Shown one piece after another: positions 17,723 through 21,016 of a stretch of 64,000 nucleotides of DNA. The stretch is from assembly GCF_046105845.1 (NCBI RefSeq), contig NZ_CP151004.1; one strand, written 5' to 3'. A model generated the notes under the pieces. That model had not been told where the DNA came from and did not search any database. It was given only the letters and a program-made list of their open reading frames with translations. The translations under genes and the position numbers were made by a program. The DNA is from Escherichia coli. Its GTDB lineage: Bacteria > Pseudomonadota > Gammaproteobacteria > Enterobacterales > Enterobacteriaceae. How positions within the stretch are numbered: the first letter of the stretch is position 1; each line of letters starts with the position of its first letter.

Positions 17723-19420
17723 ATGGAACCAAAAACAAAAAAACAGCGTTCGCTTTATATCCCTTACGCTGGCCCTGTACTGCTGGAATTTCCGTTGTTG
17801 AATAAAGGCAGCGCCTTCAGCATGGAAGAACGCCGTAACTTCAACCTGCTGGGGTTACTGCCGGAAGTGGTCGAAACCATCGAAGAGCAAGCGGAACGAG
17901 CATGGATCCAGTATCAGGGATTCAAAACCGAAATCGACAAACACATCTACCTGCGTAACATCCAGGACACTAACGAAACCCTCTTCTACCGTCTGGTAAA
18001 CAATCATCTTGATGAGATGATGCCTGTTATTTATACCCCAACCGTCGGCGCAGCCTGTGAGCGTTTTTCTGAGATCTACCGCCGTTCACGCGGCGTGTTT
18101 ATCTCTTACCAGAACCGCCACAATATGGACGATATTCTGCAAAACGTGCCGAACCATAATATTAAAGTGATTGTGGTGACTGACGGTGAACGTATTCTGG
18201 GGCTTGGTGACCAGGGCATCGGCGGGATGGGCATTCCGATCGGTAAACTGTCACTCTATACCGCCTGTGGCGGCATCAGCCCGGCGTATACCCTTCCGGT
18301 GGTGCTGGATGTCGGGACGAACAACCAACAGCTGCTTAACGATCCGCTGTATATGGGCTGGCGTAATCCGCGTATCACTGACGACGAATACTATGAATTC
18401 GTTGATGAATTTATCCAGGCTGTGAAACAACGCTGGCCGGACGTGCTGTTGCAGTTTGAAGACTTCGCACAAAAAAATGCGATGCCGTTACTTAACCGCT
18501 ATCGCAATGAAATTTGTTCCTTTAACGATGACATTCAGGGCACTGCGGCGGTAACAGTCGGCACCCTGATCGCAGCCAGCCGCGCGGCAGGTGGTCAGTT
18601 AAGCGAGAAAAAAATCGTCTTCCTTGGCGCAGGTTCAGCGGGATGCGGCATTGCCGAAATGATCATCGCCCAGACCCAGCGCGAAGGATTAAGCGAGGAA
18701 GCGGCGCGGCAGAAAGTCTTTATGGTCGATCGCTTTGGCCTGCTGACCGACAAGATGCCGAACCTGCTGCCTTTCCAGACCAAACTGGTGCAGAAGCGCG
18801 AAAACCTCAGTGACTGGGATACCAACAGCGATGTGCTGTCACTGCTGGATGTGGTGCGCAATGTAAAACCAGATATTCTGATTGGCGTCTCAGGACAGAC
18901 CGGGCTGTTTACGGAAGAGATCATCCGTGAGATGCATAAACACTGTCCGCGTCCGATCGTGATGCCGCTGTCTAACCCGACTTCACGCGTGGAAGCCACA
19001 CCGCAGGACATTATCGCCTGGACTGAAGGTAACGCGCTGGTCGCCACTGGCAGTCCGTTTAACCCAGTGGTATGGAAAGATAAAATCTACCCTATCGCCC
19101 AGTGTAACAACGCCTTTATTTTCCCGGGCATCGGGCTGGGCGTTATTGCTTCCGGTGCGTCACGTATCACCGATGAGATGCTGATGTCGGCAAGTGAAAC
19201 GCTTGCTCAGTATTCGCCGCTGGTGCTGAACGGCGAAGGTCTGGTACTACCGGAACTGAAAGATATTCAGAAAGTCTCCCGCGCAATTGCGTTTGCGGTT
19301 GGCAAAATGGCGCAGCAGCAAGGCGTGGCGGTGAAAACCTCCGCCGAAGCTCTGCAACAGGCCATTGATGATAATTTCTGGCAAGCCGAATACCGCGACT
19401 ACCGCCGTACCTCCATCTAA
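17723..19420 (+). CDS. maeA: NAD-dependent malic enzyme, 565 aa
   Basis: Track ORF 17687..19420; start at internal Met [18 protein letters not shown]...; an earlier in-frame Met gives a slightly longer form. Confidence 0.94.
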
Positions 19421-19427
19421 GCCTGCG

Positions 19428-19455
19428 CCCGGTAGTGAAGGCTACCGGGCAATTT
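19428..19455 (+). terminator. Terminator-like hairpin after maeA (CCCGGTAG / CTACCGGG stem)
   Basis: 8-bp stem, 6-nt loop, followed by T/C-rich tract. Confidence 0.45.
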
Positions 19456-19553
19456 CCCTCTCCCTTTTTCAGATCTCATCCATACTGGGTAGTGGCGAAT
19501 AAATCTCATTTGCCTCACCTGCTATGCAGAACATCATCCGAAAAGGAGGAACT

Positions 19554-20564
19554 ATGAAGGCTGCAGTTGTTACGAAGGATCATCATGTTGACGTTACGGA
19601 TAAAACACTGCGCTCACTGAAACATGGCGAAGCCCTGCTGAAAATGGAGTGTTGTGGTGTATGTCATACCGATCTTCATGTTAAGAATGGCGATTTTGGT
19701 GACAAAACCGGCGTAATTCTGGGCCATGAAGGCATCGGTGTGGTGGCAGAAGTTGGCCCAGGTGTCACCTCATTAAAACCAGGCGATCGTGCCAGCGTGG
19801 CGTGGTTTTACGAAGGATGCGGTCATTGCGAATACTGTAACAGTGGTAACGAAACGCTCTGCCGTTCAGTTAAAAATGCCGGATACAGCGTTGATGGCGG
19901 GATGGCGGAAGAGTGCATCGTGGTCGCTGATTACGCGGTAAAAGTGCCAGATGGTCTGGACTCGGCGGCGGCCAGCAGCATTACCTGTGCGGGGGTCACC
20001 ACCTACAAAGCCGTTAAGCTGTCAAAAATTCGTCCAGGGCAGTGGATTGCTATCTACGGTCTTGGCGGTCTGGGTAACCTCGCCCTGCAATACGCGAAGA
20101 ATGTCTTTAACGCCAAAGTGATCGCCATTGATGTCAATGATGAGCAGTTAAAACTGGCAACCGAAATGGGCGCTGATTTAGCGATTAACTCACGCACTGA
20201 AGACGCCGCCAAAATTGTGCAGGAAAAAACCGGTGGCGCTCACGCCGCGGTGGTGACAGCAGTAGCTAAAGCTGCGTTTAACTCGGCGGTTGATGCTGTA
20301 CGAGCAGGCGGTCGTGTTGTGGCTGTCGGTCTGCCGCCGGAGTCAATGAGCCTGGACATCCCACGCCTTGTGCTGGATGGTATTGAAGTGGTCGGTTCGC
20401 TGGTCGGCACGCGCCAGGATCTAACCGAAGCCTTCCAGTTTGCCGCCGAAGGCAAAGTGGTGCCGAAAGTCGCCCTGCGTCCGTTAGCGGACATCAACAC
20501 CATCTTTACTGAGATGGAAGAAGGCAAAATCCGTGGCCGTATGGTGATTGATTTCCGCCGCTAA
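19554..20564 (+). CDS. adhP: Zinc-dependent ethanol-active alcohol dehydrogenase, 336 aa
   Basis: Track ORF 19524..20564; start at Met [12 protein letters not shown] after AAGGAGG RBS; GHEGIG and Zn-ligand Cys motifs. Confidence 0.95.
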
Positions 20565-20680
20565 GAGGCCTTTGCTGCGACTGCCATGTTCGGGTCGCAG
20601 CATCGCACACTCTCCAACATGAAATGGCTAAATGGATTATTGTTGCGTAGGAAGGAACGCTACTGAGAGTAAAGACACTA

Positions 20681-20965
20681 ATGAAAATGGCCAATCATCC
20701 CCGCCCGGGGGACATTATTCAGGAATCACTGGACGAACTTAATGTCAGCCTGCGCGAGTTTGCCAGAGCAATGGAAATTGCGCCCTCAACGGCAAGCCGA
20801 TTGCTGACCGGAAAAGCAGCTTTGACACCAGAAATGGCGATTAAACTTTCCGTGGTGATCGGCAGTTCGCCGCAAATGTGGCTGAATCTGCAAAACGCCT
20901 GGAGTCTGGCAGAGGCAGAAAAAACGGTGGATGTGTCGCGATTACGCCGTCTGGTTACGCAATAA
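20681..20965 (+). CDS. yddM: HigA/VapI-family (XRE-type HTH) putative transcriptional regulator, 94 aa
   Basis: Track ORF; HTH-like segment; position between adhP and fdnI. Confidence 0.8.
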
Positions 20966-20996
20966 AAAAAATGGCGCTTCTTAAAGCGCCATTTTC
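20964..20996. terminator. Bidirectional rho-independent terminator shared by yddM (+) and fdnI (-)
   Basis: A-run, ATGGCGCTT / AAGCGCCAT perfect stem, T-run; lies between convergent genes. Confidence 0.6.
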
Positions 20997-21016
20997 AGCT
21001 TAAAGTTCAAAAGAGA

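Follow-up and report, generated by a model that had tools for sequence, protein, structure and literature searches.

The HigB-HigA toxin-antitoxin (TA) module of Proteus vulgaris Rts1 (PDB 4MCT and 4MCX; DNA complexes 6CF1 and 6CHV) belongs to the same family as the higB-yddM pair found in some Escherichia coli strains and has the same gene order. The Rts1 module is plasmid-borne, whereas the E. coli locus is chromosomal, and the antitoxins differ in length, with 104 aa for P. vulgaris HigA and 94 aa for YddM. In Rts1, it was shown experimentally that the two operators O1 and O2 overlap the −35 and −10 elements, and HigA alone represses ~211-fold (PMC12266136). The operator half-sites differ, being TGTTCC/GGAACA at the E. 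coli locus (predicted) and TATTACA/TGTAATA in Rts1. Judging from an IncT-plasmid hig promoter and from the published Rts1 promoter (PMC12266136), the chromosomal hig promoter of E. coli would share the layout of two 19-bp palindromes with a −10 element abutting the second. The locus in the window, i.e., the whole 64-kb stretch of E. coli DNA analyzed here, differs from Rts1 in that it has no toxin gene and only one hybrid operator left.

In E. coli CFT073, the protein YddM, deposited as antitoxin HigA (PDB 2ICP and 2ICT; WP_000781370.1), is identical to the protein encoded in the window (100%, 94 of 94 residues) and is encoded at the same adhP-fdnI site; its gene is presumably also preceded by higB. 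Compared with the toxin-bearing strains THO-008, Z0117EC0117 and Nissle 1917, in which yddM follows higB, the window lacks higB and 29 bp of the promoter/operator region.

Another HigB-HigA system, YgjN-YgjM of K-12, is located at a different locus and likewise includes an annotated HigA-type HTH antitoxin of a RelE-superfamily toxin. A search of PDB sequences with YddM (E ≤ 1e-3) did not bring up YgjM, an antitoxin of 138 aa, which is therefore not a close relative. The hig operators of E. coli and P. vulgaris have likewise been noted to be distinct (PMC12266136). YbaQ (PDB 2EBY) is a small HTH_3 protein of the HigA/VapI type, also without an adjacent toxin gene, which is distantly related to YddM (E = 5.6e-9) and, like YddM, was seen to bind DNA by ChIP-exo (PMC6237786). 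Unlike the case of YbaQ, other strains still show at the orthologous site which toxin YddM has lost.

It is already known that yddM is annotated as a HigA family antitoxin, that the structure of its product is solved and that it is listed as an uncharacterized Xre-type transcription factor; its solitary state in K-12-like strains is also on record. Added here are population counts of the decay states, a conserved double-operator footprint and an allele with a 29-bp promoter deletion, which leave the category of the gene unchanged.

The yddM locus and its neighborhood

The yddM CDS (20681..20965, + strand; ATG start, TAA stop) is intact and encodes a HigA-family XRE-HTH antitoxin of 94 aa plus stop, ending in the residues RRLVTQ. 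The assignment is based on the ORF listing, the TIGR02607 match and the identity to the PDB entries. The order of the region is maeA-adhP-yddM-fdnIHG. On the 5′ side lies adhP (alcohol dehydrogenase; 19554..20564, + strand) and on the 3′ side the convergent fdnI (formate dehydrogenase-N gamma subunit; 21017..21670, − strand), both recognized by tblastn and by RefSeq annotation of homologous loci. The earlier note had described a 94-aa antitoxin-like XRE-HTH protein between adhP and fdnI, and the ORF listing, tblastn, the RefSeq flanks and the HTH_3 and TIGR02607 matches all agree with this description.

The spacer between adhP and yddM measures 116 bp and that between yddM and fdnI 51 bp, the latter being essentially one terminator hairpin. 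This GC-rich hairpin (20967..20996) is common to the convergent genes yddM and fdnI. Its stem measures 13 bp and precedes a T-run on the − strand, and the scan called it an intrinsic terminator in the direction of fdnI; homologous hairpins are present in K-12 and THO-008. Directly after the adhP stop codon, a hairpin with a 10-bp stem and without a T-tract (20573..20602, + strand) was found by RNA folding and alignment. It is kept in toxin-bearing and toxin-less alleles and is possibly a weak barrier to adhP read-through into yddM. As a whole, the adhP-yddM spacer has a fold of ordinary stability (z = 0.28).

An Rfam scan of positions 19400-21800 yielded solely sub-threshold matches on the terminator hairpin, and no RNA gene is proposed. 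These matches (20954-21032) include STnc320 with 29.9 bits (gathering score 50) as well as STnc240, SdsR and TarB, and most likely reflect generic terminator structure only.

Several further observations were made in the neighborhood. The mechanical ORF of adhP begins 10 codons 5′ of the RefSeq start (19524-19553); the RefSeq start is used in all homologous records and results in a protein of 336 aa. The longest ORF of fdnG has 803 aa (22560-24971, − strand), and the annotated fdnG in homologous records has 3,048 nt; the short ORF is consistent with the known in-frame TGA selenocysteine codon of formate dehydrogenase-N. The length of the yddM-fdnI spacer varies strongly, from 51 bp in the window (20966-21016) to ~228 bp in Sanji (locus record 2096-2323) and ~406 bp in K-12 (locus record 2096-2501). 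In K-12, a ~178-bp unit with REP-like palindromes (GCCTGATGCGCTACGCTTATCAGGCCTAC, GCCGGATAAGGCGTTCACGCCGCATCCGGC) occurs twice in this spacer; there is none in the window. In strain 144 (locus record 2174-2632), AR_0015 and one more close relative, a tnpA gene of the IS200/IS605 family is located between yddM and fdnI. These relatives are the closest to the window (99.4-99.8% identity), and the window itself does not contain tnpA.

Assignment of YddM to the HigA family

YddM matches the NCBIfam model TIGR02607 (antidote_HigA) with 93.7 bits (cutoff 47.7; E = 4.5e-27) over profile positions 1-80 of 81. This model is an equivalog model named "HigA family addiction module antitoxin", for which a whole-protein score above the curated cutoff was required. 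In addition, residues 14-65 match Pfam HTH_3 with 39.1 bits (cutoff 23; E = 7.6e-10). YddM thus carries the Cro/C1 (XRE) HTH DNA-binding domain of the HigA family. In THO-008, Z0117EC0117 and most of the 41 species loci described below, its orthologs are encoded directly 3′ of a gene for a HigB (RelE-fold) toxin, the reversed TA order of this family. The next-best solved relatives after 2ICP/2ICT, an entry identified in a review as YddM of E. coli CFT073 (PMC3968373), are the HigA structures of P. vulgaris Rts1 (E ~1e-18, residues 7-87).

The HTH_3 match, the TIGR02607 score and the PDB identity mark yddM as a real gene and not a chance ORF. The profile search against HigA/VapI families that the earlier note had proposed was run, and by its TIGR02607 score YddM is firmly placed in the HigA antitoxin family. 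WP_000781370.1 was found as YddM in all of the 14 E. coli genomes with yddM that were compared, irrespective of the presence of the toxin. Because the protein is unchanged, YddM would still form the HTH dimer of PDB 2ICT and still bind hig-type operators. Its identity to the YddM encoded beside higB in other strains suggests that it would also be able to neutralize a cognate HigB.

Absence of a toxin gene from the window

A tblastn search of the whole 64-kb window with HigB from this locus in other strains revealed no match (E ≤ 1e-3). The only small ORFs in the adhP-yddM and yddM-fdnI gaps comprise 26 and 36 aa, and neither is HigB-like. The view that no small ORF for a HigB/RelE-type toxin exists on either side of yddM was therefore borne out. 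Since no toxin gene, as needed beside the antitoxin for a HigBA module, is present in the window, yddM represents an orphan antitoxin and not a TA system.

As HigA-like antitoxins can pair with unrelated toxins, it was also considered whether YddM retains a partner in the form of a non-homologous or unannotated small toxin ORF close by. The neighbors of yddM are the conserved housekeeping genes adhP and fdnI, the gaps of 116 and 51 bp hold just the two chance ORFs mentioned above, and the HigB search was negative over the whole window. A hidden toxin near yddM was rejected on these grounds and is regarded as extremely improbable.

Distribution and decay of higB in E. coli

The locus was searched by megablast in 5,426 complete E. 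coli genomes and was found in 5,413 of them; yddM is kept in at least 5,360 (~99%). DNA of higB is present at the locus in 1,331 of the 5,426 genomes, including Nissle 1917, NU14 and the type strain ATCC 11775, and in some of the locus matches the annotation places a "RelE/ParE family toxin" between adhP and yddM. THO-008 and Z0117EC0117 contain an intact higB ORF of 92 aa, the stop codon of which overlaps the ATG of yddM (CAC TGA TG). E. coli HigB (WP_000605676.1) matches the Pfam family PF05015 (HigB-like toxin; E = 1.4e-17) and aligns end-to-end with P. vulgaris HigB (4MCT; E = 8e-32). The LHPL histidine and the C-terminal EDYH, catalytic residues in P. vulgaris HigB, are both preserved in it.

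With respect to the toxin gene, ~75% of the complete E. coli genomes have no higB, ~10% have a frameshifted copy and at most ~14% (up to ~786 of 5,426) have a copy that is possibly intact. The frameshift is a 1-nt deletion of the ST131 type, identical to that of strain Eco-15 and present in 545 of the 5,426 genomes. In the Eco-15 locus record (1851-2128), this single-base deletion changes CGCCACCGACT to CGCCACCACT at codon 33 of higB. The exact 60-nt context of the frameshift is common to the 545 complete genomes, which include O25b:H4-ST131, so that the pandemic ST131 lineage has a pseudo-toxin beside an intact YddM.

Two rare alleles were observed in addition. The O157:H7 strain TR01 (locus record 2438-2546; 1 of 5,426 genomes) has a mosaic allele, the 5′ part of which resembles that of toxin-bearing strains and is followed by a K-12-type operator box joined to the last 49 nt of higB. 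This allele arose either by a separate deletion or by recombination between toxin-bearing and toxin-less alleles, and the mosaic indicates that recombination at the yddM locus does occur. In strain GDSC2239PM (locus record 829-2975), the 3′ part of adhP and the whole of yddM have given way to IS3 and IS150, which means that yddM can be lost outright. This case and the existence of a viable Keio yddM mutant (PMC12457515) establish that yddM is dispensable for viability.

Synteny and ancestry of the higB-yddM pair

In a scan of one genome per species, 41 loci encoding relatives of YddM could be identified. A HigB homolog is located directly 5′ of the antitoxin gene in most, indeed almost all, of the 41 loci, and typically ends 2 nt before the antitoxin start. 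This arrangement is found in Escherichia, Cedecea, Buttiauxella, Enterobacter, Pluralibacter, Chimaeribacter and Erwinia, in most of the 13 Citrobacter loci and in distant MAGs. The pair adjoins fdnI, as at the chromosomal site in E. coli, in Citrobacter, Pluralibacter and some Enterobacter; this indicates that the pair is ancestral at this site and that the solitary state of yddM is derived.

The earlier note had regarded yddM as a possible leftover of a lost TA pair and had proposed a synteny comparison. In this comparison, a toxin gene was found to adjoin the yddM ortholog in other E. coli strains and in nearly every other genus, and in E. coli it is the 92-aa higB that lies directly 5′ of an identical YddM; the proposed origin is thereby supported.

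Decay of the toxin gene with retention of the antitoxin gene is recurrent. Citrobacter sp. FP75 has a 27-aa toxin remnant, in C. portucalensis the toxin gene is frameshifted, two Xenorhabdus species contain toxin fragments, and in Chimaeribacter californicus the toxin gene is absent, the antitoxin gene being kept in each case. Judging from these sequences, this type of decay arose independently in these taxa. A 214-bp contig with ~1x coverage in the assembly of Clostridium sp. CMCC3677 encodes the first 36 residues of YddM with 100% identity, and is almost certainly E. coli contamination.

Promoter, operators and deletions

For a phylogenetic footprint, the 70-110 nt 5′ of higB were aligned for 23 toxin-bearing loci. 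The resulting footprint, TGTTGCg-N6-GgAACA-N10-tGTTCC-N5-GA.GGAACa.GGA-(~10 nt)-ATG, contains four boxes (a to d) that are conserved from Escherichia to Erwinia and are retained in K-12-type toxin-less alleles. It can be read as two predicted 19-bp palindromic operators of the type TGTTsC-N7-GGAACA, the first of which would lie over a TTGCG −35-like element, and a −10-like hexamer (GATAGT in E. coli, TATACT in Chimaeribacter) would abut the second. A scan with a simple sigma-70 consensus revealed no promoter at threshold in any allele among the upstream regions of the window, K-12 and the toxin-bearing strains. The putative −35 and −10 assignments are therefore founded on conservation and on the analogy to plasmid hig promoters. 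In the hig promoter of the IncT plasmid (a Providencia plasmid), two 19-bp palindromes were recognized by eye as TATTGCACATCGTGTAATA, then TATAGT, then TATTACACACCATGTAATA; here the −10 hexamer TATAGT abuts the second palindrome, and the half-sites differ from those of E. coli. In the toxin-less alleles of K-12, Sanji, S19-651, AH02, YZ_2_1 and GPT24-02, all four boxes are kept and variation is found mainly in the spacers.

The toxin-less alleles have a common scar, in which CTACTGAGAGTAAAGA followed by CACT[G/A]ATG replaces the Shine-Dalgarno sequence and the ORF of higB. In the window, this higB deletion scar (20660..20680, + strand; alignments) consists of 16 nt of filler, CTACTGAGAGTAAAGA, followed by CACTA. 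The latter is a relic of the His and stop codons of higB overlapping the ATG of yddM, which read CAC TGA TG in toxin-bearing alleles and in the toxin-less allele of S19-651. By local alignment, only CACTGATG is recognizably derived from higB, and the 16-nt filler aligned to the 5′ and 3′ sequences of higB with scores no better than shuffles. A precise in-frame excision of higB between ATGAA repeats was also considered and was withdrawn in view of this alignment result. The common scar points to a single ancestral deletion that would have removed essentially the whole toxin gene. Furthermore, E. coli alleles with and without the toxin have different sequences 5′ of box a; as the filler is also unalignable to any extant higB, the toxin-less allele does not appear to be a simple one-step derivative of a sampled toxin-bearing allele.

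In the window, a further deletion of 29 bp was found by alignment. K-12-type alleles have the arrangement GAAGGAAC-AATAATGATAGTGTTCCCAGT-GAAGGAAC, of which one GAAGGAAC direct repeat remains at the deletion junction (20651..20658, + strand), so that one copy of box b or d, the −10-like GATAGT and box c (TGTTCC) are gone. This deletion is present in the window and in the near-identical strain 144, and a junction-specific 51-nt query was fully covered in 182 of the 5,426 genomes. Based on the footprint of 23 loci, what is left of the putative autoregulated promoter is a residual hybrid predicted operator, TGTTGC-N7-GGAACG (20641..20659, + strand), composed of box a of O1 fused to one surviving copy of boxes b/d. 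It is the sole palindrome-type match in the window, and the search for further operator-type palindromes over the 64 kb revealed none beyond chance. The hexamer TTGCGT inside the hybrid operator is likely the −35 element. The 29-bp deletion would thus have weakened or abolished the native promoter, and yddM in the window would have to be transcribed from a weak TTGCGT-N16-GAGAGT arrangement or by adhP read-through.

Selection on yddM

Comparison of yddM with its Citrobacter orthologs resulted in dN/dS values of 0.04-0.10. Among eight toxin-less E. coli genomes, representing six distinct alleles, all 10 of 10 polymorphic codons are synonymous. The ratio of 10 synonymous to 0 nonsynonymous changes has a probability of ~6e-7 if ~24% of changes are synonymous under neutrality, with each polymorphic codon counted as an independent draw. 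Half of the synonymous polymorphisms also occur in toxin-bearing alleles and could have entered by recombination; these shared polymorphisms and the recombination indicated by the TR01 mosaic weaken the test. Restricted to the five polymorphisms that are private to toxin-less alleles, the probability is ~8e-4. YddM is under purifying selection in the toxin-less alleles.

Origin and retained role of YddM

It is very probable that yddM once belonged to an ancestral chromosomal HigB-HigA type II module and has remained as its orphaned antitoxin and autorepressor. This module would have been of the P. vulgaris Rts1 kind, with the toxin gene first and its stop codon overlapping the antitoxin start, and would have been located beside fdnI before the divergence of Escherichia and Citrobacter. 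In the ancestry of about three quarters of E. coli, the ribosome-binding site of higB and essentially the whole higB ORF were lost in a single deletion, so that yddM came to follow the former hig promoter directly, both predicted operators (TGTTsC-N7-GGAACA) of which stayed intact. In the sub-lineage of the window, a second deletion of 29 bp between the GAAGGAAC direct repeats then removed the −10-like hexamer and one operator half-site, fusing the remains into a single hybrid operator. The resulting YddM would be a dimeric HTH repressor/antitoxin left without a toxin in cis.

A regulatory or immunity role retained by such an orphan is plausible. The suggestion that YddM is a domesticated regulator, made in the earlier note, would mean that it was kept after toxin loss as a transcription factor for other host genes, its antitoxin ancestry now being irrelevant. 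The purifying selection on toxin-less alleles and the retention of yddM in at least 5,360 of 5,426 genomes are in favor of this explanation, and so are several data sets from other studies. ChIP-exo revealed that YddM binds DNA in vivo in K-12, with sites and a motif reported (PMC6237786), CRISPRi against yddM in K-12 changed gene expression in agreement with the putative sites (bioRxiv 10.64898/2025.12.20.695731), and genetic interactions with stress regulators were described (PMC9283627). The Keio yddM deletion mutant is also hypersusceptible to epetraborole, a phenotype that was not complemented (PMC12457515). However, no regulon is defined and no phenotype is confirmed by complementation, and strains with and without the toxin encode the same protein, which hence gives no sign of adaptation to a new role. 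The 64-kb window holds no extra operator-type palindrome beyond chance, and the deleted native −10 region fits poorly with a needed regulator. The suggestion therefore stands as far as selection and DNA binding in K-12 are concerned, but not with regard to a defined regulon or to the damaged promoter of the window; as a full account of yddM it is possible, though rather unlikely.

An anti-addiction or immunity gene, by which YddM would protect the cell against HigB from plasmids, phages or recombined DNA of toxin-bearing E. coli, is a less probable explanation still. It agrees with the identity of YddM to the partner of an apparently active HigB in up to ~786 of 5,426 E. coli genomes, with the recombination suggested by the TR01 mosaic and with the anti-addiction model that reviews propose for orphan antitoxins in general (PMC7354431). 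The closest plasmid-borne toxins, though, are <60% identical and the closest plasmid-borne antitoxins ~43% or less, apart from a handful of chromosome-like records; because of this distance, cross-neutralization of a mobile HigB is doubtful. The 29-bp promoter deletion would moreover suggest a relaxed need for immunity in the lineage of the window. The same deletion, with the loss of the −10-like element, would be expected of a functionless relic that drifts toward loss and has an intact ORF only for lack of time. The disappearance of the toxin, the absence from toxin-less alleles of the GAGGA Shine-Dalgarno sequence formerly inside the 3′ end of higB, the removal of yddM and the 3′ end of adhP by IS elements in GDSC2239PM and the viability of the Keio knockout (PMC12457515) point in the same direction. 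Against drift, the 10 polymorphic codons of the toxin-less alleles are synonymous without exception, the operator boxes in these alleles are conserved while the spacers vary, and yddM is retained in ~99% of the genomes although the toxin-less allele is spread over very different strains (K-12, O157:H7 and others). Pure drift is hence disfavored by the selection signal, yet it fits the promoter damage in the window, and it is considered unlikely overall.

The preferred reading of yddM as an orphaned antitoxin and autorepressor can be taken one step further, albeit with low confidence. The orphan YddM might be selectively maintained throughout toxin-less E. coli as a small stress-linked regulator or as a trans-acting immunity factor against alleles or elements with HigB that circulate within the species, and the 29-bp deletion might then represent regulatory rewiring, by loss of autorepression or dependence on adhP read-through, and not a step toward loss.

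For annotation, yddM should be treated as encoding an orphan HigA antitoxin with a toxin partner that is polymorphic among E. coli strains, and the finding matters little beyond that. The locus as a whole represents a natural decay series of a chromosomal TA module, with the intact pair, the frameshifted toxin, the deleted toxin and the damaged promoter as its states. With this series, it could be examined why purifying selection continues to act on orphan antitoxins.
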